Source: an uncultured delta proteobacterium
GTDB lineage: Bacteria; Myxococcota_A; Polyangia; Fen-1088
Assembly: GCA_963796685.1 (NCBI GenBank)
Contig: CAWCMR010000025.1
Span: 608,001-672,000, forward strand
DNA: 64,000 bases
Reading direction: 5' to 3'
Positions within the stretch are counted from its first letter, which is position 1. Every line of letters begins with the position of its first letter. Under the pieces are notes generated by a model. The model was given only the letters and a program-made list of their open reading frames with translations, had not been told where the DNA came from and did no database searches. Both the position numbers and the translations under genes were made by a program. Below are positions 3,740-44,123 of this stretch, one piece after another.

Positions 3740-4738
3740 CTACACGAACGACCATTCCCTTGCGGTCGGGGCCGTTCGCGCCAACGGCATCGGACACGGT
3801 GTCGCCGTTTCTTCCACCGCAAAGGCCCAGGGGTGCTCTCGGGCCTTCACCGCCTCCTCCAACGCCTGGGCGAATGCGAGCACGCTGTCGAAACGACCTT
3901 CCTTCTTCTTGCAGAGCGCCCGCAGGAGCACGCTTTCGAGTCTCGGAGCGAGTCCGCGCGCCAAGCAAAGGGCCGCGGGCGCTTCGTAGACGACCTGAAA
4001 GAGGAGGGATTGGATAGAATTTGCGGCGAATGCCGTGCGTCCCGACAACGCTTCCCATGCGATGCAGGCCAATGCCCACTGGTCGGTACGTTCGTCGACG
4101 GTGTCGACTTGGCCAAGCGCCTGTTCGGGAGACATATAGTGGGGTGTTCCCATGATGGGCTCGGGCTGCGCGGCAAGCTCACTTGCCCTGCAGGCCTTGT
4201 TGACCCCGAAGTCGATCACCTTCACGTAATCCACTTTGCAGGCAGCGTCGCACAGGAAGATGTTCGCAGGCTTGAGGTCCCGGTGGACGACGCCCTTGGC
4301 ATGAATTGCGGCGAGCGCCGCAGCCGTTTGCTTGATCACGCGTAGCGCAGTCCTCGACGAGAGTCTCCCCGCGCGGCGAAGGCGGCTGTCGAGATCTTCT
4401 CCCTCGAGGAATTCCATCACCAGGTAGGGCTGGCCGGTGTGCATGACGCCGAAGTCGAAGGCATGGACTATGTGCGGATGATCCAGTTGGATCGTGACCT
4501 CTGCCTCGCGGCGGAACAACGCGACAGCCTCCTTATCCGTTGCGAGAGCATGATGCATCGCCTTGAGAGCGACGCGTTTGTTGCAATGAAGCTCCGCGGC
4601 CTCGTAGACGTTGCCCATTCCGCCCTGCCCGAGAAGGCGGTCGATGCGGTAGGCACCGTTGATGGTTTGGCCGAGAAGAGGATCCGCAGGGTCGGCGCGC
4701 GGGACATCCCGCGCCGGAGTGGGCGTCTCCGCGCGCAT
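3740..4738 (-). CDS. Hanks-type Ser/Thr protein kinase, cytoplasmic
   Basis: GQGGMG, VALK, HRDLKPAN, DFG, GTPHYMSPE. Start chosen at ATG 4738; the ORF is open to 4882. Confidence 0.9.
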   Translation of the reverse strand: MRAETPTPARDVPRADPADPLLGQTINGAYRIDRLLGQGGMGNVYEAAELHCNKRVALKAMHHALATDKEAVALFRREAEVTIQLDHPHIVHAFDFGVMHTGQPYLVMEFLEGEDLDSRLRRAGRLSSRTALRVIKQTAAALAAIHAKGVVHRDLKPANIFLCDAACKVDYVKVIDFGVNKACRASELAAQPEPIMGTPHYMSPEQALGQVDTVDERTDQWALACIAWEALSGRTAFAANSIQSLLFQVVYEAPAALCLARGLAPRLESVLLRALCKKKEGRFDSVLAFAQALEEAVKAREHPWAFAVEETATPCPMPLARTAPTAREWSFV

Positions 4739-4959
4739 GGAGCGCGGACGCAGGTACCGATCCAGCTTCTCGCGTTTGTGTGATCCTGATGTGGGCGGAA
4801 GACGCAGACACCGCCCGAAGCGGGATCGAGCCCCGCCCCTCTGACCCCGATAGGCCGTTAGGCCCACCGGGGTCCCCCCCATCCATCAGCCGGAGGCGGC
4901 GGCTGACCGTTCGCCCATCGGCCGTACAGGCTAGTCTGTTCATAGGCAGCGCAGGCCTA

Positions 4960-4975
4960 TGCAAGGCGAGTGCCC
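4960..4975 (-). promoter_or_regulatory. sigma54 (-24/-12) promoter candidate for the kinase gene
   Basis: Minus strand reads GGGCACTCGCCTTGCA, matching GGCAC-N5-TTGCA with exact GG-N10-GC spacing. Confidence 0.6.
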
Positions 4976-5031: not shown

Positions 5032-5051
5032 GGAATGCGATCACATTCGCG
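5032..5051. promoter_or_regulatory. Palindromic operator/enhancer-like site, copy 1
   Basis: GGAATGCGATCACATTCGCG. The core GAATG-C-GATC-A-CATTC is an inverted repeat, and the site is 19/20 identical to 11746-11765. Confidence 0.55.
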
Positions 5052-5840: not shown

Positions 5841-5879
5841 GCCGGCCTTCGCCAGCGCTCGCCCGCCGAAGATCGGCTC
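5839..5879. terminator. Possible bidirectional hairpin between convergent genes
   Basis: Imperfect inverted repeat GAGCCG..CTTCG...CGAAG..CGGCTC spanning the gap between two stop codons. No U-tract. Confidence 0.3.
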
Positions 5880-7632
5880 AACGAACGAAGCGCTCGAAGT
5901 AGCGCGCGAGCTGTTTGACGGCGGTCCCCCGGTCGGCCTGCAGTCGCGCCGCGGTCTGCGAAGCGAAGGACGACATCGCCTCCTCGTCCATCGGCTCCGA
6001 ATCGCCGCCCGAATTGCCGAGATGGAAGAAGAGCAGCGGCTTGAGGTACTTCTCGTTCCACTCCTTCTGGTCGTCCCAGCTCCTTGGCTCGTGACCGTGG
6101 TCTTCGAAGAAGGCCTCGACAGCCTTGACGGCGAGATCGGCCCACTGGGGGCGCGCCGAGTCGTCGCTGTCCACGGTCGTCGGCGCGGGCGGTGCCCGCA
6201 AGGCGCCTGCCTGCAGAGCCTGCTTGCAGCTCTCCGGATCGATCGACCCGTGGGTCGCGTCGCGCGGGAGCCGCAGCCCGAAGTTCATCAGCTCGCGGAA
6301 ATTCCCCTCCCAGGCGTGATTCTGAAGCACCTTGAGCGCGTCCGCGGTGAGCGCGTCGCGCGCAGAGGTACCTGGGTTGAGGCGCGTGTTCTCCAAGCAG
6401 GCGAGCACGTCTTCCCAGCGCGAGCGCAGCGAGGGCACCTCGACGACGTAGACCGACAGTCGGTACCACAGATCGACCCGAAAATTCCCTGCCCGCGTGG
6501 CCGCACGCAGATCGCGGTTGGTCGCGGCCACGACGCGGACATCGGCGCTGCGGGCGCGACCCGATTCGCCGACGCGCTCGTACTCTCGGCGGTCGAGAAA
6601 GCGCAGGACCATGGCCTGCACGTCAATCGGCAGCTCTCCGATCTCGTCGAGGAACAGCGTGCCTCCCTGCGCCCGCTCGACGGCCCCGACGATCCGCCGC
6701 GTGGCGCCCGTGAACGATCCCGGTTCGGCCCCGAACAGCTCCGAGCGAAGCAGCTCCTTGCTGAAGGTGGAGCAGTTCGTGGTGACCAAGGGGCCGCTTC
6801 GACCCGACTCCCGATGGAAGACCTCGGCCAGCACCTCTTTTCCGGCCCCCGATGGCCCCATCAAAAGCAGCGTCTTCGCATCCCTTTGCGCGGCTTCGAC
6901 GACGTCGCGATGGGCTTTCCGAATTGCGCGCGAGGCCAGGATCATGCCTTCGTTGCGCGTATTCTCCTCCGACTCGAAAAGCGAATTCTGGCGACCGACC
7001 CAGCGCCAGACGTGCTCCAGTGTCCCCGCCCAGGTCGCGTCGGCGGTCGCGAGAGCGACGACGTCGAGCACCGCGCCGTTGGCGAGAGGGATCTGGCTCG
7101 GAGAGTGGTTCGTCGCGGGGTCGTCGTCTCGAACCATCACGCGCGCGTCCACCTCGCGGACGGAGAGCCAGTCCTCGATCGATCGCGCGATGGCCGGGGC
7201 GAAGTCGTGACGATCGTGCCAGACCGGCGGCTCAGGGTCATCCGCGCGCAGGAGGTTGGCCTTGGCCTTCCCGAGCTGCAGCACGACATCCGAATCGCCG
7301 ACGTCGATGGGACGGTCCTTGGGAAGCAAGAGCCACGTGCCATTCCGGCTTCCAAGATCCCGGACCTGGGATTGCCCGTCATGGTTCGATACGAGGACAT
7401 GGTTGGCGGACACGCTCGGGGACAGGATGCGCACCGGATCGATGGGCGGCGACTGGTCGCCGCCCGGGATCCCCGGCGCGTGCGCATCAGGGTTCCGCCC
7501 CAAAAGAAAGGCCCGCGCCGGCTCGAGCTCGGCCGCGTACGCCGCATGTCCTTCGGGTGCAAGAACGGTCAATCGCGTCACGAACGGTGCCTCCTTGGCG
7601 GCATCGTAGACCACCTCGCACGGATTCGGCAA
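5878..7632 (-). CDS. FHA-domain sigma54-dependent enhancer-binding protein
   Basis: FHA motifs 'LGR', 'VSANH', 'DLGSRNGT'. AAA+ Walker A GPSGAGKE, 'ELFG.E.GSFTGA', 'GTLFLDEIG', 'W.GN.REL'. Divergent Fis-like HTH '[13 protein letters not shown]'. Confidence 0.9.
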
Positions 7633-7668: not shown

Positions 7669-9036
7669 CTACTCCGGCCCGTTCTCCCCACCCCGTTTGC
7701 GCCCACCCCGTTTGCGGATGTAGGCTTCGCGCAGCACCGCGGCTCGCAGCTGTGCCTTCCCCTCTCGAAAACCGCAGCTCACGGCGAATCCCTCCATGTC
7801 CGGAGGCATCGCGCACCCTCGGCAGGCTTCGAAGTACCATTGCCAAAGCTCGGCCTCGGACATTCCGACATCGGCAAGGGAGGGCGTGACAAGACCGGCA
7901 TCGCGCAACTTTTGGGCCTTGTGCTCCACCTTTTGCAGCCAGCGGCCGTACTGCCCGGTTCCGCGCAGATAGTCCACCAGGTGGTTGCGGGCAATGCCTT
8001 CTTTGATGGGCCAGGCCCAGCTCAGCCTGGCTTCCGTCTCGAAGAAGTGTCGGTACTCGTCGTCCTCCAGCTGCTGGGCCGTACACCAGCGCTCGAAATC
8101 GTCGCGACTGCGCAGACCGCGGCGGAACCGGAACTCGGAACGAGCGCGTTGCACGACGGCGGCGTCGGGATGGGCTCCCGCCCGCATCGCCAATTCGAGC
8201 GCCAACCCGCGCGCAGCTGCGCCGTCGACCGCGCCTTCGTAGGCTCCGGCCAGCTTGAGCTCTTCTTCGAGCAGGGCATCCCCCGAGAGCGTTGGACCGA
8301 GGTCGGAGCCCTCCTCTGCCAGGACCATCCGCGTGGCCTCGTGCCACGAATCGGTGGGTTCGAAGCGGAAGGTGACCTGCTTGCGTGGCGGATCGCCGGC
8401 TGCCCATTCCCGTAGATAGGTGAGCAGTGCGATCGCGTCGTCTCGCTTCTGGTCCACCTTGCCGAGGGCAAGCCAGTCGCCGAGAGCTTCAACCTCGACT
8501 CCTCTCGCTGCCGCTTGCTTCAACAAGCCTGCGAAGCTGCGCCCCGCGTAGAACTGCCGCTTGGCCACCTCGAGCAAGGCGGCCTCGGTGGCTTGCGCGA
8601 TCACCTTCGCGCGCACGGCCGCGCGCAGCGACGCGCGGATGTTGACCAGGGCGTCCGAAAGTACCCGAAACTCGCCCTCCGCCGGAGCGTGCGCGACCGC
8701 AACCTCGTCGTCGTCCTCGAGCGTGCCGTCGCGGAACGCTTCGTAGACGGCACCAACGCCAACCATGCCGAAGGCATCGAGCTCTGCGGCGCGAAGCGCG
8801 CCCATGCTGCTCGCCCCGAACACATGGACGCCCTCGCTCATCGCCCAAAGAATCTCCTTGTGCCAAACCGCCGGCACCCGCTCGAAGTACCCGTCGATGA
8901 TGGCGATCGCCTCTCGCCCTTGCATGACGGCGCGGTACACGTCCCCAAACTTGGCCGGTCCAGACACGTCGGCGTCGACGATTTCGCGAACCGCCCGAGC
9001 TGCGAGCGTCGGCCCGACGAAGACGAGGAATCTCAC
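7669..9036 (-). CDS. tfuA: TfuA-like protein with long C-terminal extension
   Basis: GTG start overlaps the ycaO stop (GTGA). Motifs 'VF.GPTL', 'GP...GD', 'IIDG.F...PAVWHKEIL', 'GASSMGALRAAEL', 'DDDEVAV.H', 'DQKR.DA'. Confidence 0.93.
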   Translation of the reverse strand: MRFLVFVGPTLAARAVREIVDADVSGPAKFGDVYRAVMQGREAIAIIDGYFERVPAVWHKEILWAMSEGVHVFGASSMGALRAAELDAFGMVGVGAVYEAFRDGTLEDDDEVAVAHAPAEGEFRVLSDALVNIRASLRAAVRAKVIAQATEAALLEVAKRQFYAGRSFAGLLKQAAARGVEVEALGDWLALGKVDQKRDDAIALLTYLREWAAGDPPRKQVTFRFEPTDSWHEATRMVLAEEGSDLGPTLSGDALLEEELKLAGAYEGAVDGAAARGLALELAMRAGAHPDAAVVQRARSEFRFRRGLRSRDDFERWCTAQQLEDDEYRHFFETEARLSWAWPIKEGIARNHLVDYLRGTGQYGRWLQKVEHKAQKLRDAGLVTPSLADVGMSEAELWQWYFEACRGCAMPPDMEGFAVSCGFREGKAQLRAAVLREAYIRKRGGRKRGGENGPE

Positions 9037-10259
9037 GACAAACGCCCGAGCAGGCGCTTGCCCGGTGTAAACCCGCTCGACCCTGCGATGCCTTCGAGGC
9101 CGGGGATCACGACCCGCACCACCGGGATGTGCAGCTCCGGCAGGGTCAGGTCGACAACCGCGATCTCCGCGATGCCGCTCGAACGCAGGCACTCGAGCTC
9201 CCACGCCACGTCCTCGTGAAAGGTCGCCGCGCTGTAGCTCGGGCCGTCGCCGAAGTTCCGGCCTGCCCCGGCCGCGGTGATCATCTCGGCGGCTTCCGCG
9301 GCGATGGTCGGATCGTGTCCGCGTCGATAGGTGGCGATGCTGAGATCGTCCCGGCTGCCCGCGATGACGGTCAAGCGTGTCTGTGCCGCTTCCGTCAGGG
9401 CTCGCAAGAGCGCGATGCCGCGAGCAGGATGGCATCCCGAGCCGGTCGCCGATGCAAGGGGACGCAATTGGCCGTTCGCGGGATCGTCCGCGATCATGCA
9501 AACGAACACCGGGATGCCGGTGTCGGTGGTGACGTCCCACACGCCGACTCGAATTCCCGCGTCCGTGAACTTCTGCAAGACGGACAGGCACGCGACGTCG
9601 TCAATCGTCCGCACATCCACCTTGCGGGTTTGTTGCTGAGCCCTCGGGCTGTATTCCCACAAGGTGACCGCGTCGCGTTCGGCCAGCTCGCAGATGGCAT
9701 GGCTCGTCGCCTCGAGGGGATGGTTTCCCGACGCCACGCCGCTGTCGTTCATCTGAAACGCGCCACTGGCAGTGGGCAGGGGCAGCGTGTACGCCGTGTG
9801 TACGAGCTCGAATGGTATCCAGATGGACGTGCGACCGAGGATTTCATGGCCCTGCACCCAGAGGAACGGCAAACGCGGATCCAGCATGCTGCCGGCGAGC
9901 CGCGGCAGCGCCGTCAAGTCGAGGGTCCGACCGCGCCCGCGCATCTCCTCCCACGAGGCCAGCATGAGGGGCAGGCGCACGCGCTCGGCGTGGTAGTTCT
10001 CGAGCGATTCCATGATCCCCGACACCTTCGCCGCGACCAGATCGAGCCCTTTGCCCTGTGCGACGGCAATCGAGCGCGAATTGGGCCGCACGACCGCCAC
10101 CACCGGGACGCCGATCACGTCGAGCCCGGTCACGTTCGCCACCCTGGTGATGCCGACCCGGTGCAAAAGCGGCTCAATCCGCCGGAGCGTCTCCTCGGGC
10201 GCGACGGCCCGGTGCGTGCCGAGCGTGTGCTGCTTGAATGTCTCGCTGGGCAACGGCAT
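9033..10259 (-). CDS. ycaO: YcaO-family protein, TfuA-associated (thioamide-forming) type
   Basis: 'GITRVANVTGLD.IG.PV....RP', 'QGKG', 'ES.E', 'G.ASGN...EA..HA.CE..ERD', 'RALTEAAQTR', 'PVVRVVIPGLEG'. No C-terminal PxPxP. Translationally coupled to tfuA. Confidence 0.95.
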   Translation of the reverse strand: MPLPSETFKQHTLGTHRAVAPEETLRRIEPLLHRVGITRVANVTGLDVIGVPVVAVVRPNSRSIAVAQGKGLDLVAAKVSGIMESLENYHAERVRLPLMLASWEEMRGRGRTLDLTALPRLAGSMLDPRLPFLWVQGHEILGRTSIWIPFELVHTAYTLPLPTASGAFQMNDSGVASGNHPLEATSHAICELAERDAVTLWEYSPRAQQQTRKVDVRTIDDVACLSVLQKFTDAGIRVGVWDVTTDTGIPVFVCMIADDPANGQLRPLASATGSGCHPARGIALLRALTEAAQTRLTVIAGSRDDLSIATYRRGHDPTIAAEAAEMITAAGAGRNFGDGPSYSAATFHEDVAWELECLRSSGIAEIAVVDLTLPELHIPVVRVVIPGLEGIAGSSGFTPGKRLLGRLS

Positions 10260-10282: not shown

Positions 10283-10885
10283 CTAGCGCTTGTGCGCTGT
10301 ATGCCCGCGGTGGATCGCATCGCGCACGCGATGGGCGTGGTCGGTCTTGTTTTCGTAGCCCTTGAGCATGCCCGATCGCAAGCTGACCAGGCTCAACAGG
10401 ATACAAGTACAACCTTGCGGCGTTACTTTCGGTACGTTCGCCAAGACGGCGCCTTCCTCGCGCGCCATGAATTCCAAGTCCGGAATCTCGGTCGGCGACA
10501 ACGCCTGGCACTCTTCATATTCTGCCCGCGTCACCTGAAAGCAAGAATCGGGATCCTCGGGTGGAAAGACGATGAGGTCGCCGGGGCCAGGCTCGCTCTT
10601 CGAATGGGCCGGCGCCTTCGCCCGCGACTTCTTCGCAGCGCGTGTCTCGTCCGGCGGCACGAGCCGTGCCAGGTTGGCCACGTAGTAGTGCTTGCCCTGC
10701 TTGCCCAGGCTCGGCTCCGACAAAACAGCGTCCTGCCATCCCGGCTTCACCGCAACTCTTCGCGCCTCGTTCGTATAATAGTCGTGCGGGATCCAGCGAT
10801 TGACGATTGTCTCGTTGTCGTGATCGTCCAAGCCGCGGAAGAATAGGATCAAATCGTCGAGCTCGATCTTGTCGTTGTCTCTCAT
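10283..10885 (-). CDS. Uncharacterised 200-aa two-module protein (candidate YcaO/TfuA substrate)
   Basis: RBS GAGG upstream of the ATG. Short gaps to both neighbours in the operon. Internal duplication 'DDLILF...YYVANLARL' / 'GDLIVF...CILLSLVSL'. Confidence 0.75.
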   Translation of the reverse strand: MRDNDKIELDDLILFFRGLDDHDNETIVNRWIPHDYYTNEARRVAVKPGWQDAVLSEPSLGKQGKHYYVANLARLVPPDETRAAKKSRAKAPAHSKSEPGPGDLIVFPPEDPDSCFQVTRAEYEECQALSPTEIPDLEFMAREEGAVLANVPKVTPQGCTCILLSLVSLRSGMLKGYENKTDHAHRVRDAIHRGHTAHKR

Positions 10886-11635: not shown

Positions 11636-11686
11636 TGCCTTCTCCTTGCCGTCGGCGCGACTTGGGCTTCAGGTGCAACAACCCCA

Positions 11687-11702
11687 AGCAAGGCCTGGAC
11701 CA
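11687..11702 (-). promoter_or_regulatory. sigma54 (-24/-12) promoter candidate for the NIPSNAP-like/hypothetical/ycaO/tfuA/EBP operon
   Basis: Minus strand reads TGGTCCAGGCCTTGCT (TGG-N8-TTGCT, exact GG-N10-GC spacing), about 50 bp upstream of ATG 11635. Confidence 0.6.
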
Positions 11703-11745
11703 TACAAATACGACGTGGGCACAACGAAATCCACCGGTTTTGGAC

Positions 11746-11765
11746 GGAATGCGATCACAATCGCG
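11746..11765. promoter_or_regulatory. Palindromic operator/enhancer-like site, copy 2
   Basis: GGAATGCGATCACAATCGCG, 19/20 identical to 5032-5051 and in the same orientation relative to a minus-strand sigma54 box. Confidence 0.55.
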
Positions 11766-11776
11766 GAGCCGACTCC

Positions 11777-11852
11777 CCTGAAAACACCTCGCCCCGCGGA
11801 GCGGGGAGAGGTCGCCGAGCGCAGCGAGGCGGGTGAGGGGCTGTCACGTCTC
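11777..11852 (+). repeat. Palindromic intergenic repeat (REP/RIME-like), intact copy
   Basis: CCTGAAAACACCTCGCCCCGC-GGA-GCGGGGAGAGGTCGCCGAGCGCAGCGAGGCGGGTGAGGGGCTGTCACGT. A near-identical inverted copy is split by the intron (18401-18444 + 20520-20560). Confidence 0.85.
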
Positions 11853-11890
11853 ACACCTGAAGGATCCGGGCTTCGGCCCGGCGGCGTTGC

Positions 11891-14800
11891 TCACAGGTAC
11901 CTGAGCCCGATCGCCAGCTCGACCACACCGCTTGCGGACAGCATCGCGGTTTCATGGTTCCCGCGCGAGCACGCTTCAATCGCGTGCTCCATGAGCTCTC
12001 GAAGCGGTGTCGGCAGAAGGTGCTGCGTCGGCGCCAACAGGGCTTTCCACTGCTCGACCGCCTTGTCGAGCTCTCCGTCAGCGGCGTGCCGGGCAGCCAA
12101 CGGCATTCGCACCAACCAGTGAAGGGGGTACTCGTAGGCGGGGAGAAGCTTGGCCCAAGCGGCGAGACAGACTGCCGCGTGGTGCTCGAGCTCGGGCTTA
12201 TCGCCGCCCTTCCAGGCCGCCCAGGCAAGACACGCGTGCGAGACTCCGACATAGTCGTGCATCCCTCCCTGGGCAGCGATGGAGGCCGCACGTTCCGCCA
12301 TCGTGCGCGACTGCACGAGACGCCCCGCGCGTCGATGAAGCACGGCATAGTACGACAGGAAGCGCGCCTGAAGCGTGGCATCGCCGATGCGATCGGCGCC
12401 GGCGATGGCGGCCTGGAACAGCGGTTCCGCCTCCTCCAGGTGTCCTGCACACAGCAGCGGGAAGGCCAAGAAGAACCGCGCCAGGGCCAGCTCCCGCGGG
12501 TCCTCGCACTGCTCCGCCGCAGCCAGCGATTTCCGACCGTACGCGATCGCCTGGTCGAGGTGCGCGTACCTTTCACGTCGCAAGGCCGTGTGAACGAGCG
12601 CCTGGAAAAATTGCGCGCGCTGCGATGCGACCCCGCGTCGCTCGACCACCGGGCGAACGCGCTCTACCAACTCGGACAGCTCGTCCACCCTGGCAAGCCA
12701 ATAGAGGTCCCAGGTCTTGTCGACCTGCACCTGCACCCATTCGAGCCACCACGCGTCCGCGTGCTCCTCGGCGAGCGCGGTGTCGCCGAGCTGTTCCTCC
12801 GCTCTCGCGAATTCCCGCAGTGCCTGCCCATGCTGGTGTTGGCGCTCCCAGGTGCGCGCGCACTTCCGCAGGCGTCTGCCCCGCGCGACCGAGGGGGCTT
12901 CGCGAGAGTCGATCAGCGCGGCTTCGAAAGCATCCCGCGCACCCTGCGCCTCGCCGGTGATGAGCAACAGATCGCCGATGGCTTCGTGGAGAGCAGCACG
13001 CGCCGCCGCCCGCTCGGTCGGACCGCGGAAGGCACGGTCGATCTGGTCGATTTGACCGATGGCCAGCCGGTACAACTTGACCGCGTCGCCGTTGGCATAG
13101 GTGCTGCGGGCGAGGTCGGCCGCCCGCCCGAAATAGTCGGCGGCGCGGTCCGGGGCTCCGGCTTTCGCCAAGTGGAAGCCGAGTGCGCCAAGGTGGGGAT
13201 GGAGCTCGCGCCCCGCGTAGCGTTCCTCGATCGACGTCGCTGCCCGCCGGTGCCGGTGGGCGCACGTGTCCGCTGCCATGGCCGAATAGGCGGCGTCCCG
13301 GAGTTGATCGTGCACGAAGCGAAGGATGCCCGACGGATCCTCCTCGAAGATCTGCCGTTGTCGGAGCGTTCCGTACGCCTCGTGGATGTCCGATACGTCC
13401 AGCTCCGCGGTGTGGGCCAGAAGCTCGGGGTCGAAGCCTCGGCCCAAGACCGCGGCAGCGTCGATGATCTGCCGAATCTTCGGACTCAGCCCTTCGATGC
13501 GCGAACGAATCAGCGCAGAGATCGCGGTCGGGATGGCCACGCCCATGAGGCGAGGATCGCGCAACACCCAGCGACCGCCTGCATTGCGCTCGAGTCGCCC
13601 TTCGGCGATAGCAGTCCGCAAGTACTCGGCGAGAAAGAACGGATTTCCCCCGGATACGGCGTGCAGGAACTCGACGAGCTCCGGCGGCGGCGCGCGCAGC
13701 GCAAGCATTCCGCCCACCATGCGTCCCACCTCTTCCTTGCCCAGTCGGTCGAGCTCCACGTAGAGGTTGCCAGGCTCGCGAAAGAGCCGCTGCAACCCCG
13801 AGGTCATCTCCTCGAGTCGACACGTCCCGAGCAGCAGCAGCGGCGCCCCCGCGCACTCTGCCGCCGCGATCGAGGACAGCAGGTCCAAGGATAGCTCGTC
13901 TGCCCACTGCAGATCGTCGATGACGAAAAAGAGCGGTCGCTCGCGAGCATAGTCCAGCACCAGCGAGGCCAAGGCACCGAGCATGCGCGCACGGGCGGCG
14001 TCGTGGGGAAGCGGCGGGGGTTCTGCCTCGTGCAGTTGGTCGGCGAGATCCTCCAGCAGTCGCTCGTGCGGCGCGAGCAGGCGAGCCCGGCCGGCGAGCA
14101 GCCTCCTGGCAATCGCCCCGTCCCCGCCACGGCAATAGTCGGCAACGCCCGTCAAAAGGCGCCGGACCGGGTGGAGCGGAGCACTCAGGGCCCGATGCCC
14201 GCCCTCGGCGGTGCCGGAAGGCAGACACTCGCCCGTGATCACCGCCATCCCCTTTTCCGCGGCCAGGGCGGCGGCCTCGAGCACGAGGCGCGTCTTACCC
14301 GCGCCGCTCGCCGCGGCGACGAAGACCTTGCTCCCTCGTCCACCGAGCGCACGATCGACGGCCTGTGCAAGGAGCGCGAACGCCTCTCGCCGACCGACGA
14401 GCTCGGAGCGGTACAAGTACGTCGTGGGCTTCGGCGACGGCGACCGCTCGTCCAATCCGCCCACGGATGCGAGCAGCGCCGCGACATCGTCGGCATAGCC
14501 GATACGGTCCGGCGGGCTGCGCGCCAGCAGGCCGAGGACCAGCGTGTCCAGCGCGACCGGGATCCCGGCGACCTTGGTGGAGGGCACCGGGGGATCGGGC
14601 GAAAGCTCGTGAACCCCCGCCGGCCCGAAGGGCAACACCCCGGTCAGAGATTCGTACAAGACGCAGCCCAGGGAAAAGAGGTCGGCGCGCGCGTCCACGA
14701 ATCGCCCGAAGCGCTGCTCGGGGGCCATGTAGGCGAGTGTTCCCAAGCCCGCATCGGCAAGGTCGAGCGTTTCCCTACCCATTCCTCCAAAGGAAAAACC

Positions 14801-15376
14801 CAGTCCGAAATCGGCGAGCACGGGTGTCCCGTCGGCGCGAATCAGGATGTTCTCGGGTTTCAGATCGCGATGCACGACGCCGCACCCGTGCAGAAAGGCG
14901 AGGCCCCGGCAGATCGGGATCGCCAAGCGAACCATCTCGGCGATCGACAGCCGGACGATGGCGGCCGGTTGAAAGGTTTCAGCACGCGCCTGCGCCACGA
15001 CACCCTCGGCGTCGGCCAGGGTCTCGGCTGCTCGGGCATCTTCCGTTTCGCGAAGCGACCTGGTCGGTTCTCGCCGCGGCCAGAGCAATGCACGGAGGCT
15101 GGTGCCGTCGACCATCTCCATGGCAAACCAGGGAACACCGCCGCTCGACCCCTGATCGAGAATACGCACGATGTTCGGGTGTCGCAGCCCCGCGAGGATA
15201 TGAACCTCACGACGGAACGAGGCGAGTAATCCCGGAGCTTGGGTGCGCAGCACCTTGACCGCCACCGCCTCCCCGCTGACGGTATGACGAGCGCGGTAGA
15301 CGATCCCCATCGCGCCGGATCCGATCGACCCTTCCACCTCGTATGGGCCGAAGCTCCTGCCCGCCGGGATCGCCAT
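11891..15376 (-). CDS. Ser/Thr kinase - STAND-type AAA ATPase - TPR multidomain protein
   Basis: Kinase motifs [22 protein letters not shown]. ATPase motifs 'LVGR', Walker A ASGAGKT, Walker B IDDLQWAD, 'GGNPFF', 'F.HD..R'. Helical repeat C-terminus. Confidence 0.92.
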   Translation of the reverse strand: MAIPAGRSFGPYEVEGSIGSGAMGIVYRARHTVSGEAVAVKVLRTQAPGLLASFRREVHILAGLRHPNIVRILDQGSSGGVPWFAMEMVDGTSLRALLWPRREPTRSLRETEDARAAETLADAEGVVAQARAETFQPAAIVRLSIAEMVRLAIPICRGLAFLHGCGVVHRDLKPENILIRADGTPVLADFGLGFSFGGMGRETLDLADAGLGTLAYMAPEQRFGRFVDARADLFSLGCVLYESLTGVLPFGPAGVHELSPDPPVPSTKVAGIPVALDTLVLGLLARSPPDRIGYADDVAALLASVGGLDERSPSPKPTTYLYRSELVGRREAFALLAQAVDRALGGRGSKVFVAAASGAGKTRLVLEAAALAAEKGMAVITGECLPSGTAEGGHRALSAPLHPVRRLLTGVADYCRGGDGAIARRLLAGRARLLAPHERLLEDLADQLHEAEPPPLPHDAARARMLGALASLVLDYARERPLFFVIDDLQWADELSLDLLSSIAAAECAGAPLLLLGTCRLEEMTSGLQRLFREPGNLYVELDRLGKEEVGRMVGGMLALRAPPPELVEFLHAVSGGNPFFLAEYLRTAIAEGRLERNAGGRWVLRDPRLMGVAIPTAISALIRSRIEGLSPKIRQIIDAAAVLGRGFDPELLAHTAELDVSDIHEAYGTLRQRQIFEEDPSGILRFVHDQLRDAAYSAMAADTCAHRHRRAATSIEERYAGRELHPHLGALGFHLAKAGAPDRAADYFGRAADLARSTYANGDAVKLYRLAIGQIDQIDRAFRGPTERAAARAALHEAIGDLLLITGEAQGARDAFEAALIDSREAPSVARGRRLRKCARTWERQHQHGQALREFARAEEQLGDTALAEEHADAWWLEWVQVQVDKTWDLYWLARVDELSELVERVRPVVERRGVASQRAQFFQALVHTALRRERYAHLDQAIAYGRKSLAAAEQCEDPRELALARFFLAFPLLCAGHLEEAEPLFQAAIAGADRIGDATLQARFLSYYAVLHRRAGRLVQSRTMAERAASIAAQGGMHDYVGVSHACLAWAAWKGGDKPELEHHAAVCLAAWAKLLPAYEYPLHWLVRMPLAARHAADGELDKAVEQWKALLAPTQHLLPTPLRELMEHAIEACSRGNHETAMLSASGVVELAIGLRYL

Positions 15377-15447: not shown

Positions 15448-15756
15448 TTATCGGGTGCCGCCCGATGTGCCACGCGATGTGCCGCCTGCAATGGCCAGAA
15501 CCAGGGTGAGCACGTCGCCGTCGCGCACGCCCACCGCTTGACACGGCCCCAAGGCGCGGACGTTCTCGCTACCCACGAACACGTTGACGAAGCTGCGAAG
15601 GCGCCCCTGGTCGTCGAACAGTTGACGGCGCAAGTCGTTGCTCCGGTCGGCCAGTGCGGCAAGCGCGCCGGACACGTTGTCCGCGGCGACTTCGATTCTC
15701 TCGCTGCCATCCACGAAACGCCGAAGAGGCGTGGGGATGAGGATGGTCACGGGCAT
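15448..15756 (-). CDS. ThiS/MoaD/CysO-family ubiquitin-like sulfur carrier with C-terminal extension after GG
   Basis: 'IPTPLR.F', 'L.DD.G.LR.FVNVFV', 'DGD.L....AIAGG' followed by TSRGTSGGTR. Start overlaps the end of the JAB gene. Confidence 0.88.
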   Translation of the reverse strand: MPVTILIPTPLRRFVDGSERIEVAADNVSGALAALADRSNDLRRQLFDDQGRLRSFVNVFVGSENVRALGPCQAVGVRDGDVLTLVLAIAGGTSRGTSGGTR

Positions 15757-16211
15757 GACGGGACCTGCCCCGCGAACGGGTTGAAAGCGCGAGCCGGCTC
15801 CGCGCGAGCACGGCGAAAGGCCCCTCCCTGGCCGGTCAACGTGAACAGGCCCAAGTCCACCGCGCGTGCCTTCGCCACGGAGCAGATGATGTAGAGGTAG
15901 CCTGGCCACGCTTGCGCACGGTCGCAGTCCGACGGCAGGGCTTCACAATCGGGATGGCTGTGATAGTAGCCCACCACGTCTTCACCCGCTTCCCGGGCCT
16001 GGCGTTCGGCGGACAACTGAAATTCCGGCGCGACGAGGTAACGGCAACGCGGATCATCGTCGTCATTACGGGCCGCGATTGACCGTGTGACGTGCCAGGG
16101 CACACGTTCCCCATTTCCCCGACCGAGCAGCACCCCACAGGCCTCGAGCGGATAGGCTGCTTCGCAAAGGCCGGAAATCTGCGCCCGTATGGCCTCGGAG
16201 AGTCGGACCAC
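15747..16211 (-). CDS. JAB/Mov34/MPN (M67) metalloprotease, Mec-like
   Basis: 'YP.EACG.LLG' and JAMM motif 'GYYHSHP....PS..D'. Start is uncertain (GTG 16211; ORF open to 16376). Confidence 0.9.
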   Translation of the reverse strand: MVRLSEAIRAQISGLCEAAYPLEACGVLLGRGNGERVPWHVTRSIAARNDDDDPRCRYLVAPEFQLSAERQAREAGEDVVGYYHSHPDCEALPSDCDRAQAWPGYLYIICSVAKARAVDLGLFTLTGQGGAFRRARAEPARAFNPFAGQVPSCP

Positions 16212-16394
16212 CCTTGCCGATGCATACCGACCGGGATGGGGCGCGGGATCTCGGCGTGACACGCGCGCGAGTCTGCCAGTATTCGAGCCTCCTGGGAAGG
16301 CTGACGGAAGGCGCGATAAACCGGCTTTGCCAGGTCCTCTTTTGCGTGGCAGGTTCGGTTCGTTCGGTTCGTTCATTGGAAAGGAGGAATGCTC

Positions 16395-18444: not shown

Positions 18445-20519
18445 GTCGAGTAGCCAGGGGAGGTTACCCTCCCCCAGCTCTCACAGAACCGGACTTGTGG
18501 GCCTCACATCCGGCTCTTCGGGACGCTGGCGTTCGGGAGCGACCCGTAGTCCAGCGCCGGCATTGCTGCCCGCAGCTATCCTGGCTCCAGGGCCGGGTCC
18601 ATGAAGTCCAAGGCGTGATGGTCCTTCCACCGCTCGGCCAGGCTGACAAGCCCGCGTTCGGCAAAATATGCGTTGCGCAGTCCTCGTTCAACTACCGATG
18701 TGTGGCTCAGCGCCCACCAGGAGCGATGCCCCTTGTAGACCCCTTGCCACGCGGTTTTCGGTCTCACCCCCAGGCTGATGAGGTGTCGTGCGATGAAGCG
18801 TCTGCGTTTCCAGTGCCGTAGCACTATCGCTCGCAGCCGCCGCCTGATGTGTGCGTCGAGTGCCTGCAGCGTCCGCTCTTCCGCGGCCGTGCAGATACAG
18901 AAGAAGCCGATCCATCCGAGCAAATACGCGTTGACCTGTTTGATGCAGCCCTTGAGGGACTGCCCAAGGTTTCGCGGCGTCAGCTCTCGGACCTTCTCGT
19001 CAATGCGGCTTTTGCTCCGCGCCGACGGCAGCACCTCCGCTTCCCCCGTCAGCGGCTCGCGCCGCAGCCGGAATCCCAGAAAGTGCCGCTCTTCCGGTCG
19101 GGCCACCGCGCTCTTGGCCAAGTTCACCTTCAACCGCATCCGGCCTTCGATGAACTTGACCACGCTGGCCATCACACGCTGACCCGAGCGCTCGCTTCCG
19201 ACGTAGATGTTGCAGTCGTCCGCATAGCGCACGAAGCGGTGACCGCGTTGGGCAAGCTCGCGGTCGAGCTCGTCCAGCACGATATTGCTCAGTAACGGCG
19301 AAAGCGGACCACCTTGTGGCACTCCTTCTTCCGTCGCCACCACCACTCCGTCGGGCATCACCACCTTGGCTTTCAGCATCTGCCAGATGAGCTCGATGAG
19401 CCGCCGGTCCTTAACCCTCTGTTCTAGCCGCGCCACCAGCCGTTGCCAGTGGACCCGGTCAAAGAACTTTTCCAGGTCGAGGTCGACCACCCATTCGTAC
19501 CCTTCCTCCAGATACTGCTTGGCCTCGGCGATGGCCGTGTGACAGCTGCGCCCAGGTCGGAAACCGTGGCTCGACGGGTGAAACGTCGGCTCATAATGCG
19601 GACCGAGCACTTGGTGCACGGCCTGCTGAACCACGCGGTCCACCACGTTCGGTATGCCAAGGCCCCGCCGCCCGCCACCGCTCTTCGGTATCCATACCCG
19701 CCGGATGTCTCCGACTCGGTATGTCCCGTCGAGCAGCGACCGCGACAGCGCCGGTATCAGCGTCCCCAACCCCTTCGCCACTTCCCCCACGCTTTGCCGG
19801 TCCGGTCCAGGTGCGCCTTTGTTGGCCTTCACTTGCTCGAACGCTCTTTTCAGGTTTCCTTCGCTCGCTACCTCCTCCATCGTCATGGGCGGCAAGGTCC
19901 TCTCTTCCTCGTTCCCCGACTTCGGCACCTCGCTCCGCGCAGGCACGGGTTGGCCCGGATCCGCTTGGGCGGTGGTCCCTTTCGGGTTGTCGGCTGTCTC
20001 GGGAAACAGTCCGAGCTGCCTTGCCTCTTTGCTGGCCGTGGTCGCCTTCCCTCCCCGCCTTCTGGCGGTTGGAACCGGCTTTCGCCGGCCTTCCGGTATT
20101 ACGCGACCATCCGACTCCTCTTGTCCCTTCTTCATCTCGTCCTTTCGTTCTCGATGAATTCCGCTTGCGATTCCTCGCCGCGGAGGCCAAGAGGTCTCTC
20201 CGGGTAAGAACGCAGAACTTCGCACCGACTCCGTCGCCACTACGCGGGCCGCCCGACGAATATTGGGCTTTGCCGCCGAAGGCCAGCTTGCCCAGCGGTA
20301 CCCACGCCTTACGGCGCTTCACTTTCGTTCGGTTCGGCGCTGCACCATAGACTTCCACCAGACACCTCCTCGCGGGAGACGGGCCTTGCGGCCCGTCTGG
20401 CCTGGTGCTCCAGACCGGCGCCCTTGTCTCGTAGGTGGGAGGTTCCCTCCGTCAGGGTCCCCAGAGGACTTGGCTATTTCATGGCTTCACCTCTTGTTCT
20501 GCGTCCATGCCGGACGCAC
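18445..20519 (-). mobile_element. Group II intron (IIC-like), full length
   Basis: 5' end GTGCGTCCGGCATGG at 20519. Short domain V GAGCCGGATGTGAGGCCCACAAGTCCGGTTC at 18516-18486. Domain VI ends ...CTACTCGAC at 18445. Removing the intron restores the repeat seen at 11777-11852. Confidence 0.93.
18576..20135 (-). CDS. ltrA: Group II intron reverse transcriptase/maturase (no HNH endonuclease)
   Basis: 'KGAPGPD', 'R.LGIP.V.DR..QQA', 'S.GFRPGRS', 'DLEKFFD', 'G.PQGGPLSPLL.NI', 'RYADD', 'FLGF', maturase X domain. Start at 20135 (RBS AAAGGA) or 19886. Confidence 0.95.
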   Translation of the reverse strand: MKKGQEESDGRVIPEGRRKPVPTARRRGGKATTASKEARQLGLFPETADNPKGTTAQADPGQPVPARSEVPKSGNEEERTLPPMTMEEVASEGNLKRAFEQVKANKGAPGPDRQSVGEVAKGLGTLIPALSRSLLDGTYRVGDIRRVWIPKSGGGRRGLGIPNVVDRVVQQAVHQVLGPHYEPTFHPSSHGFRPGRSCHTAIAEAKQYLEEGYEWVVDLDLEKFFDRVHWQRLVARLEQRVKDRRLIELIWQMLKAKVVMPDGVVVATEEGVPQGGPLSPLLSNIVLDELDRELAQRGHRFVRYADDCNIYVGSERSGQRVMASVVKFIEGRMRLKVNLAKSAVARPEERHFLGFRLRREPLTGEAEVLPSARSKSRIDEKVRELTPRNLGQSLKGCIKQVNAYLLGWIGFFCICTAAEERTLQALDAHIRRRLRAIVLRHWKRRRFIARHLISLGVRPKTAWQGVYKGHRSWWALSHTSVVERGLRNAYFAERGLVSLAERWKDHHALDFMDPALEPG

Positions 20520-33767: not shown

Positions 33768-33795
33768 GGCCGCGCGGAAACGGCCGCTCAGGCGG

Positions 33796-35391
<1,596 letters not shown>

Positions 35392-42768: not shown

Positions 42769-43992
42769 CTACTTGCGCGAATCCGGAGGCGCGTCGGCGG
42801 CCGCGAGCTCGGCCAGCACGTGAAGCGCGGCCTCGCGCTTGGCCCGCTTGCGCGACTCGGGGTCTTTCATGTTGGGCACGTGCCCACCGGGAGGGGTGGG
42901 CGGAACGGCCATCCTGGGCATTTCGGCGCTGGAGCGGCGGGCGCCCCCACCTTCTCGCCGGCGTGAAAGAGGCACGGGCGGCGGGGTGCGCACCGGCGCT
43001 GGCGTGGCGGCTGCGCGGAACGACGGCAACACCTCCTTGAGAAAGCGCTCGCGCTCGGCGGCCTCCTCGACCATGGCCTTGCCGTAGATGGCGTGCATGA
43101 GCTCGGACACACGCGCGGCGTCGGTGCGAGGCGCCGCCTCGGCGATGGCGTCCGAGAGCGCGAAACGAAACTCCTCGGCGTTGGCGAAGCGCTTGCTGCG
43201 GTCCGGGGCCAGGGCGCGCATGAGCACCTCGTCGAGGGCCGGTGTCACCCACGGCGCGCGCGTCGACGGCGGCATGGGCTTGGGGTGGCGGACCATGGCC
43301 AACGCCGCGGCGGGATCGAGACCCGAGATCTGCAGGTACTGGTGCCCGGTGAGAAGCTCCCACAACACCACCGCCAGCGAATACACGTCGGTGCCGGGAT
43401 CGGCAACCTCGCCACGCGCCTGCTCGGGGGCGAGGTACGCCGCGCGGCCGAACACCACGCCCGGCTGGGTGTGCTCTTGCTTGAGCGCGCTGCGGGCCAG
43501 ACCGAAATCGGTCAGCTTCACGTCGCCGTTGTAGGCCAGCATGATGTTGGGCGGGGCCACGTCGCGATGGACCAGGTTGAGCTCACCGTAGGTGTGCACG
43601 TAGTAGAGCGTCCTGGCCAACTCGCGCGCGACGTGCAAGGCCACCTCGATGGGAATGCGGTGACGGACGCGCACGCAGCGATTCCACACCTCGCGCAGAT
43701 CCTTGCCCTCGACCATTTCCATGGCGATGTAGAACTCGCGCTCGACCTGGCCGGCGTCGAAGGTGTTCACCAAGCCCGAGTGGGCGAGCCGCAACACGAC
43801 CTTGGCCTCGTCGAGGAAGCGCTTGGCCTTGCCCTCGTCGGACTTCTCCGGAATGACCTTCTTGATCACGCACAGCTTGTCGAAGCCGTCGATTTGCCCG
43901 AGCGCCGCGACGTAGATCTCGCCCATGCCGCCCTTGGCCAGCGGTTTGAGCAGGACATATTTGCCGAACTGTCGCGGGTAACTGACAGCCAT
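42769..43992 (-). CDS. Ser/Thr protein kinase
   Basis: AKGGMG, HRDVAPPN, DFG, YLAPE. Paralogous to the first kinase domain of the upstream gene. Confidence 0.92.
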   Translation of the reverse strand: MAVSYPRQFGKYVLLKPLAKGGMGEIYVAALGQIDGFDKLCVIKKVIPEKSDEGKAKRFLDEAKVVLRLAHSGLVNTFDAGQVEREFYIAMEMVEGKDLREVWNRCVRVRHRIPIEVALHVARELARTLYYVHTYGELNLVHRDVAPPNIMLAYNGDVKLTDFGLARSALKQEHTQPGVVFGRAAYLAPEQARGEVADPGTDVYSLAVVLWELLTGHQYLQISGLDPAAALAMVRHPKPMPPSTRAPWVTPALDEVLMRALAPDRSKRFANAEEFRFALSDAIAEAAPRTDAARVSELMHAIYGKAMVEEAAERERFLKEVLPSFRAAATPAPVRTPPPVPLSRRREGGGARRSSAEMPRMAVPPTPPGGHVPNMKDPESRKRAKREAALHVLAELAAADAPPDSRK

Positions 43993-44123
43993 CGTTCTCC
44001 GAAGCAAAGACTCTGGGGGGTTCTTTCGAGCCCCCGCGAGGGACGCCCCCGGGCAAAGCCCACCGGCGCCCACGCGAGCGTAGCTTATCAGCGCCGGGCG
44101 CACGCGGACAGTCGGCGGTAGCG

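Follow-up and report, generated by a model that had tools for sequence, protein, structure and literature searches.

The window analyzed here comprises 64,000 nucleotides of contig CAWCMR010000025.1 from an uncultured delta proteobacterium. This study centers on P0001, a gene of 200 codons at 10283..10885 of the reverse strand, whose product belongs to an uncharacterized protein family. P0001 is the second of four closely spaced genes, all on the same strand. The first gene of this operon, P0002 (10901..11635 (-)), encodes an unannotated, Trp-rich protein of 244 aa and ends 15 nt ahead of P0001. After a further 23 nt follows ycaO (9033..10259 (-)), whose product matches PF02624 with E 8.6e-74 over profile positions 1-325 of 325. 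The ycaO stop codon overlaps the GTG start of tfuA by 4 nt (GTGA). TfuA (7669..9036 (-); PF07812, E 1.5e-48) has 455 aa and consists of an N-terminal TfuA domain and a C-terminal extension of approximately 245 aa. A preliminary description of this DNA had placed P0001 directly upstream of ycaO and had therefore considered it the best candidate for the YcaO substrate. The 23-nt gap confirms the position, and the linkage is conserved in a second locus and, by inference, on eight further contigs (see below). All functional statements on this cassette derive from sequence, synteny, and predicted structure.

P0001 and its protein family

P0001 is clearly a genuine gene, because its GC content at third codon positions (GC3 = 0.77; second positions, GC2 = 0.42) is comparable to that of the adjoining genes and because it has a family of homologues. 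The open reading frame (ORF) starts with ATG, 6 nt behind a Shine-Dalgarno-like GAGGA motif, and ends with a stop codon at 10283-10285. The protein is cytoplasmic. A word-indexed search with 219 candidates revealed 30 homologues besides P0001 itself at E<=0.01, and a profile search with the 42-sequence family alignment A2 added few members, limited as it was by the word index. The exhaustive HMMER search of 1.84 billion cluster representatives extended the family to 48 representatives at E<=0.001, 39 of which reach <=1e-10 and five <=1e-30. Where the sources name them, the proteins are called 'hypothetical protein' and the hosts are Myxococcota-type genomes. The window itself holds a single family copy, as judged by hmmsearch of its six-frame translations.

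No Pfam or NCBIfam family matched P0001 at E<=0.1, no PADLOC model matched, and the family profile had no counterpart among PDB sequences at E<=10. The ESM Atlas provided nothing usable for P0001, and literature searches turned up no description of the family. A small, uncharacterized protein family thus has P0001 as its founding member, which bears out the earlier designation as an unknown protein. Two apparent relatives were rejected: P0076 is a low-complexity chance match, and P0161, apparently a YcaO fusion, combines a YcaO fragment with a beta-propeller and is unrelated to P0001.

In the preliminary description, P0001 was divided into two modules joined by a Lys/Ala/Pro linker. The strings quoted there, namely DDLILF, WIPHDYY and GKHYYVANLARL for module 1 and GDLIVF, FQVTRAEY, GAVLANVP and PQGCTCILLSLVSL for module 2, are all found in the translation, and so is the linker rich in these three residues. 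Based on alignments A1 (close homologues) and A2 and on its profile likeness to module 2, module 1 comprises residues 10-78 (10652..10858 (-)) with the pattern DDLILFF ... RWIPHxxYT ... W.DAVLSEP ... YYVANLARL. The variable, K/A/P-rich linker covers residues 79-101 (10583..10651 (-)); it is modeled at intermediate confidence (predicted local distance difference test, pLDDT, 65-80) and shows the lowest conservation, with majority-residue frequencies of 0.24-0.34. Module 2 spans residues 102-172 (10370..10582 (-)) and reads GDLVVFP ... CFRVPRxxY ... DLEFMAxEEGVVLANVPK-loop-GxTCxLLSLxSLRSG. The basic, His-rich C-terminal tail (residues 173-200; 10286..10369 (-)), with a predicted helix at 180-196, is variable and missing in some relatives.

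Whether the two modules are related depends on the level at which they are compared. A single-sequence Smith-Waterman alignment of the two halves is at chance: its score of 21 is at or below the shuffle mean (22.6-24.2), and 688-828 of 1000 shuffles equal or exceed it; only DLILF and DLIVF align. Profiles drawn from alignment A2 do reveal a relationship: hhalign of module 1 (residues 6-80) against module 2 (residues 98-175) yields P 0.0035 in local and 0.0017 in global mode for a collinear alignment of 65-70 columns. It pairs DDLILFF with GDLVVFP, RWIPHxxYT with YLVPRxxY, AVLSE-P with GVVLANIP, and YYVANLSRL with TCxLLSLxSLRS. The corresponding scores, 18.3 and 18.2, compare to 10.2+/-2.1 and 3.4+/-2.5 after column shuffling, and none of 100 shuffles reached them in either mode, this control being a lenient one because it destroys strand periodicity. 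With an HH probability of 6-9%, a duplication is likely, though old and weakly detectable. The repeat claimed earlier thus stands at the profile level and fails at the level of the single sequence.

Relatives of P0001 extend this picture. Scanned with the module-2 hidden Markov model (HMM), P0073 (413 aa) shows four full-length copies and P0077 (316 aa) shows two; both proteins, which come from the representative library, consist of tandem module 2 only. The module-1 HMM weakly touches the repeats of P0073. Module 2 is therefore an autonomous, repeatable unit, and from the profile comparison P0001 is likely an old tandem duplication in which module 1 is the more diverged copy. Single-module homologues, which the preliminary description had envisaged, did not turn up in convincing form; the proteins with two and four copies of module 2 were found instead. 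The short matches P0065, P0069, P0071, P0074, and P0200 were discarded as apparent contig-end fragments, since most of them have V or L as their first residue or correspond to internal segments of full-length relatives.

An AlphaFold2 model computed with the 42-sequence alignment reached a pLDDT of 80.5 and a predicted template modeling score (pTM) of 0.78. It supersedes an earlier model based on 28 close homologues (pLDDT 58). Each module is predicted to fold as beta-beta-alpha-alpha-beta-beta over approximately 70 aa, the helices being short, and the whole-chain pTM implies that both modules pack into one folding unit. A pLDDT below 50 is confined to the N-terminal residues 1-3 and to 'PQGC' in loop 156-159. 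Foldseek returned no match to the model at E<=0.001, neither in the PDB (best E 3.2) nor among the viral structures of BFVD (best E 0.29), and the predicted fold is for this reason possibly new. Two known folds were ruled out. A winged-helix domain of the PqqD-like type, i.e., a recognition element (RRE) for peptides that are ribosomally synthesized and undergo post-translational modification (RiPPs), finds no match in Pfam, NCBIfam, Foldseek against the PDB, or the PDB profile search. A beta-grasp carrier of the ThiS/MoaD type, as might be read from '...LVSLRSG', finds neither a ThiS nor a fold match, and the '...SLRSG' motif carries SG, which is not conserved as GG and does not lie at the C-terminus.

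Conservation culminates in the later part of module 2. Majority-residue frequency peaks at residues 135-172, with 0.88-0.89 in close set A1 and 0.50-0.73 in wide set A2, and is lowest in the linker and the tail. All 42 family sequences have N71 and G145; D11, F16, Y37, W50, L72, L75, D103, P108, D136, A149, N150, P152, K153, G158, C161, L164, L166, and L169 are conserved in at least 90% of them. Within this region lies the candidate modification site, the loop KVTPQGCT (residues 153-160; 10406..10429 (-)), with conserved G158 and, just behind it, C161. Across the family the loop follows the signature P-[KR]-x(3-5)-G-x-[TS]-C and leads into a hydrophobic strand. A Cys directly ahead of the last strand is also present in 6 of 6 module-2 repeats of P0073 and P0077. 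The preliminary description had singled out 'VTPQGCTC' as a plausible thioamidation or metal site. The conservation peak and the low pLDDT at 156-159 speak for a special loop; of 'PQGCTC', though, only G158 and C161 are conserved, while C159 of 'GCTC' is restricted to the close subfamily.

Genomic context of P0001

In a genome scan, 153 pattern matches were examined and two loci confirmed: L001 from a metagenome-assembled genome (MAG) labeled 'delta proteobacterium' and L002 from a Polyangiaceae MAG. Together with the window, three loci were inspected directly. L001 carries, in this order, genes for a JAMM protease, a ThiS-ThiF-rhodanese fusion, a kinase, P0002, P0001, YcaO, TfuA, an enhancer-binding protein (EBP), and a second kinase. 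Identity to the window is 88% for YcaO, 82% for the EBP, 79% each for the kinase and ThiS, 78% for TfuA, 69% for JAMM, 68% for P0002, 59% for the second kinase (STK2), and 55% for P0001. L002 shows a divergent FHA protein with an EBP, the kinase (45%), P0002 (34%), and P0001 (28%); the contig ends after P0001, so YcaO is not visible there. P0001-family members occur in this context in 3 of 3 inspected loci, each time preceded by P0002.

The linkage of P0001 and YcaO is thereby seen directly in two genomes, the window and L001. In addition, nine YcaO homologues, namely eight out of the best ten (78-89% identity) and another at 62%, share the exact longest-contig size with a P0001-family member (1,866,838; 163,089; 8,893; 2,644; 44,412; 9,477; 14,145; 4,454; and 19,303 bp). 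This pairing by identical size is validated by the 1,866,838-bp pair, which is L001, where the linkage is known. We infer that eight further contigs carry a P0001-family gene together with ycaO. On those of 2,644 and 4,454 bp the two would be adjacent, since both genes fit only as neighbors. Unpaired family members mostly lie on contigs of less than 2 kb or go unseen because a YcaO cluster at 90% identity names a single contig; they do not count as evidence against linkage.

The enzymes of the operon point to thioamidation. Among NCBIfam models, YcaO is nearest to TIGR03266, the YcaO of McrA-glycine thioamidation, with 226.8 bits at a cut-off of 365, and TfuA reaches 212.5 bits with the McrA thioamidation model NF033432 (cut-off 235.2). 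As both miss the equivalog cut-offs, they are not McrA-type equivalogs, and their chemistry is presumed from similarity. The TfuA extension (window 7669-8400 (-), residues ~211-455) has no family match; it is conserved in L001, whose TfuA is 78% identical over its whole length. The extension may be a substrate-binding domain.

P0002 has no Pfam match even at E<=10 and no PDB sequence match. The ESM Atlas points, with a score of 0.92, to clusters of NIPSNAP-like proteins, one of them with PF07978 on 26%, and a literature search combining 'YcaO' and 'NIPSNAP' retrieved 0 papers. P0068 joins, within one reading frame, the C-terminal portion of a P0002-like protein to a protein resembling P0001, and this fusion suggests that P0002 and P0001 act together physically. 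P0002 is an equally unannotated alternative, be it as substrate candidate or as partner. Complex prediction for YcaO (alignment A3) and P0001 (A2) scored 0.00 in both runs, which had no controls, and speaks neither for nor against binding. PADLOC assigned no defence family to P0001, P0002, YcaO, TfuA, or the ThiS-like protein described next; for kinase, EBP, and JAMM it reported generic kinase, AAA+, and JAB domain matches only.

Upstream of the operon, a gene at 11891..15376 (-) encodes a 1161-aa protein that combines a Ser/Thr kinase with an AAA_16 (STAND-like) NTPase and TPR. It is preceded by a small ThiS-like gene at 15448..15735 (-) (PF02597, E 0.0011; 19.9 bits, under the 22.5 cut-off), which starts 11 nt after a JAMM/MPN+ (Prok-JAB) metalloprotease gene at 15747..16376 (-) (PF14464, E 1.4e-22). 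The ThiS-like sequence continues for a tail of 10 residues past its ..AGG. Its counterpart in L001 is a ThiS-ThiF-rhodanese fusion of 477 aa (ThiF E 1.9e-82), to whose N-terminal domain it is 79% identical; JAMM and fusion genes together occupy L001 1540-3590. The window has no ThiF at this site, where the kinase gene begins only about 70 nt after the ThiS-like stop codon. The ThiS-like protein and JAMM look like a dedicated sulfur-carrier module for YcaO and TfuA.

Downstream of tfuA follows an FHA-domain sigma-54 EBP (5878..7632 (-); PF00158, E 2.5e-53; PF00498, E 1.5e-5) and, beyond it, the gene of the second Ser/Thr kinase, STK2 (3740-4882 (-)). More Ser/Thr protein kinase genes lie at 33788-34999 and 42769-44103 (all (-)) of the 64 kb, which have 65.5% GC. 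This wealth of kinases, the GC content, and the names of relatives (Polyangiaceae, Corallococcus, Archangium, the latter two with YcaOs of 52-65% identity) indicate a genome of the Myxococcota type. An ORF at 18576-20240 (-) combines a reverse transcriptase (PF00078, E 5.7e-43) with a group II intron maturase (PF08388), which suggests a group II intron approximately 2 kb from the cassette.

The presence of an EBP is matched by a promoter of the appropriate type. Sigma-54 promoters follow a consensus with the spacing GG-N8-TTGC, and such a -24/-12 element, TGGTCCAGGCCTTGC, lies at 11688..11702 (-), about 50 nt ahead of P0002. It is preceded, at a distance of 44 nt, by a palindromic element, CGATTGTGATCGCATTC (11747..11763 (-)), which forms a putative activator site. 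GG-N8-TTGCT elements occupy the homologous place in L001 (7226-7240) and in L002 (6255-6269, there GGCACGGCCCTTGCT), and one exact copy of the palindrome is found at the homologous place in each of the two loci. All three loci therefore have palindrome CGATTGNGATCGCRTTC and -24/-12 element ahead of the P0002 operon (L001 7164-7240; L002 6192-6269). A generic sigma-54 consensus scan of the window was at chance (79 matches, 73 expected), and for this reason only conservation at homologous positions carries weight for the promoter. The palindrome itself matches twice in the window against 0.02 expected, and none of 100 shuffles reached two. Its second copy, with one mismatch, lies at 5033-5049 (-), 57 nt upstream of GGGCACTCGCCTTGC (4961-4975), ahead of the kinase gene 3740-4882. 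This arrangement suggests that the FHA-domain activator commands a small regulon composed of the P0002 operon and the second kinase gene. We infer that the EBP drives both promoters and is itself governed by phospho-threonine signaling of the kinases.

The spacer between kinase and P0002 also contains an ORF of 61 aa, 11669-11854 (-), that ends in ..WGCCT and overlaps promoter and palindrome. Most of it lies inside an insertion of approximately 110 nt that is specific for the window and has no counterpart in L001. It is probably a chance ORF. As the sole spare ORF falls into a window-specific insertion, the cassette has no room for a hidden small precursor.

Candidate function of P0001

We tentatively prefer to see in P0001 a folded protein that YcaO and TfuA thioamidate, with the modification at or beside G158. 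We hold this view because, judging from the alignments and the model, a conserved flexible loop is flanked by invariant residues and relatives multiply precisely the module that bears it. Furthermore, the cassette holds everything except a named substrate and leaves no room for another precursor. The enzyme context is consistent with it: YcaO and TfuA are closest to McrA thioamidation models, and a ThiS-like carrier and JAMM are adjacent in both genomes. Proteins composed of two or four copies of module 2 also resemble multi-core substrates more than enzyme adaptors. Moreover, P0001 matches no enzymatic, RRE, ThiS, or leader-peptide family that is known.

The proposed course of events begins with a kinase signal that would reach the FHA-domain activator, by which the sigma-54 promoter is probably switched on, and P0002, P0001, YcaO, and TfuA would be co-transcribed from it. 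JAMM would trim the ThiS-like carrier, the trimmed carrier would be thiocarboxylated, and TfuA would deliver sulfide from it to YcaO. YcaO would then use ATP to activate one backbone amide of the exposed loop (P152-K153-x3-5-G158-x-[TS]-C161) that leads into the final strand of module 2. This would leave a thioamide in the backbone of a folded protein, as known from McrA and uL16, and its most plausible position is G158 or a residue next to it. The lesser alternative is a thiazoline at C161. With its kinase/FHA/sigma-54 wiring, the cassette seems to deploy the modification upon a specific signal.

Several observations count against this assignment. Adjacency to ycaO fits a substrate and an adaptor or partner alike, and P0002 is linked as tightly and annotated as little. 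No protein of the cassette evolves faster than P0001 (55% between window and L001, compared to 88% for YcaO), which therefore fits the 'static substrate, static enzyme' pattern of uL16 more poorly; as a counterweight, its core at 135-172 is as conserved as the enzyme. YcaO and TfuA score under the equivalog cut-offs, which leaves room for a thiazoline at the conserved Cys. The ThiS-like gene of the window is a sub-threshold Pfam match without the adjacent ThiF found in L001. Finally, the contexts inspected cover few family members, with the tandem-repeat forms P0073 and P0077 and the fusion P0068 outside of them.

The best-placed rival, which we nevertheless regard as unlikely, casts P0001 as an accessory of YcaO and TfuA, i.e., an adaptor, scaffold, chaperone, or recognition element, while P0002 or an unlinked protein serves as substrate. 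Synteny fits this explanation equally well. The fusion of P0002-like and P0001-like parts in P0068 suggests a physical partnership, a well-folded two-domain P0001 could be a binding module, and E. coli YcaO is described to modify a protein encoded elsewhere (PMC13063428). Yet P0001 has no likeness to a PqqD-like RRE or another known partner (no Pfam or NCBIfam family; no Foldseek match in the PDB at E<=0.001), and characterized TfuA-type YcaOs are described as having TfuA for a partner (PMC5589413). Tandem proteins with two or four copies of module 2 would be unusual for an adaptor, and conservation does not peak over a surface but in a flexible loop together with the strand that flanks it.

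We give still less credence to the view that P0001 and P0002 are merely co-regulated members of the kinase/FHA-EBP regulon, unrelated to YcaO chemistry, in which modules and Cys loop would serve, e.g., metal or redox sensing. The copy of palindrome and -24/-12 element ahead of the second kinase gene 3740-4882 speaks for a regulon that exceeds the operon, and the His-rich tail and one conserved Cys of P0001 would suit such a task. It does not account for the operon-level spacing with stop and start close to ycaO in two genomes, for the co-occurrence of family members and YcaO even on contigs of 2.6-4.5 kb, or for a family confined to this context in 3 of 3 inspected loci.

The least probable explanation, a long RiPP-type precursor from which the conserved C-terminal segment would be excised as a small peptide after acquiring, at the Cys, a thioamide or thiazoline, can draw on the gene position just upstream of ycaO, where precursors are frequent, on the short, Cys-containing C-terminal stretch as the most conserved part, on multi-copy relatives that recall multi-core precursors, and on the JAMM protease close by, but it conflicts with a length of 200 aa far beyond the usual and a predicted compact two-module fold (pTM 0.78), with conserved residues distributed across both modules, with the lack of NHLP, Nif11, or other leader-model matches in Pfam and NCBIfam, with the absence of a transporter or exporter, leader peptidase, or tailoring gene among the conserved neighbors (kinase, P0002, YcaO, TfuA, EBP, ThiS, JAMM), and with the presence of a ThiS-like gene with a tail past GG, which accounts for JAMM.

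If P0001 is the thioamidation substrate, a wider proposition comes into reach, which we regard as more speculative than the substrate role itself: beside McrA and uL16, the P0001 family may form a third natural class of proteins that receive a backbone thioamide from YcaO. Substrate, enzyme pair, ThiS/JAMM relay, and kinase/FHA/sigma-54 control would come together in a single inducible cassette, in which a module of approximately 70 aa can be multiplied two to four times and the thioamide/Cys loop would be the functional site, in metal or redox chemistry. Such a bacterial cassette, complete in itself and equipped with a candidate substrate that is small and soluble, would be easy to reconstitute. 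It could show how TfuA-type YcaOs recognize folded proteins and how ThiS-COSH feeds YcaOs, and work on P0001 would give a function to an orphan family with an apparently new fold.

Relation to known systems

The general chemistry is established. According to Rice et al. 2026 (PMC13063428), YcaO enzymes let a nucleophile attack the backbone amide, whose oxygen is then phosphorylated; with sulfide as the nucleophile a thioamide results. TfuA and a thiocarboxylated ThiS homologue supply the sulfide, and thioamide-forming YcaOs outside sulfide-rich habitats tend toward this combination (PMC13063428). Protein backbone thioamides are, according to the same source, known from two proteins only, McrA and uL16. 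Both are modified as folded proteins, recognized via their tertiary structure (PMC13063428, PMC5589413).

The sulfur-relay neighbors of P0001 have precedents of their own. Sulfur-carrier systems in which ThiS/MoaD proteins, JAMM proteases, and E1 enzymes cooperate are represented by the CysO/Mec+ and QbsE/QbsD types. The genes at 15448-16376 resemble them, with a ThiS-like protein that extends past GG next to JAMM and with ThiS fused to ThiF-rhodanese in L001. The likeness is one of the neighbors and not of P0001, which lacks a C-terminal GG and matched neither ThiS nor a beta-grasp fold.

Thioamidated RiPP clusters, such as those of thioamitides and thiovarsolins, share with the window a YcaO-TfuA core beside a gene-encoded substrate (Malit et al. 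2021, PMC8120280). That survey reports many uncharacterized clusters in Proteobacteria, including a Corallococcus cluster family. Its precursors are short peptides found with RiPPER, in contrast to the folded 200-aa candidate of the window, and the P0001 family is not mentioned in main-text passages of this survey, which was based on a short-peptide finder (PMC8120280). The window furthermore differs from such clusters by having no conserved genes for tailoring enzymes, proteases, or exporters.

The uL16 system of E. coli, in which YcaO modifies Met82 (Rice et al. 2026, PMC13063428), is similar in that a bacterial YcaO acts on an exposed loop of a folded protein in its tertiary structure. As described there, E. 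coli YcaO differs in working without TfuA, in having a TPR dimerization domain, and in modifying a substrate encoded elsewhere. In the window, TfuA, ThiS-like carrier, and candidate substrate are all local.

The McrA system is another close counterpart. The genes of YcaO and TfuA overlap as they do in the archaea described by Nayak et al. 2017 (PMC5589413), and sulfur-metabolism genes lie nearby in both cases. The nearest NCBIfam models of the enzymes from the window are those of McrA thioamidation. The target McrA is a full-size folded protein in which the modified Gly is followed by a hydrophobic residue and, a few residues on, by a Cys (PMC5589413). In contrast, the window is bacterial, its enzymes score under the cut-offs (226.8 compared to 365 for YcaO, 212.5 compared to 235.2 for TfuA), its TfuA carries the additional C-terminal ~245 aa, and it has its own kinase/FHA-EBP/sigma-54 control. 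Its candidate substrate does not resemble McrA and has its gene within the operon, whereas neither McrA nor uL16 is encoded beside its enzyme together with sulfur-delivery genes. The system would work in the manner of McrA and uL16 thioamidation but is an equivalog of neither enzyme set. What is new about the cassette is that an enzyme pair of known kind occurs with a folded candidate substrate of its own, encoded on the spot and not described before, and with a regulatory wiring that is likewise new. If the assignment holds, this would be the first thioamidation system to unite substrate, enzymes, ThiS/JAMM relay, and signal control in one inducible cassette.

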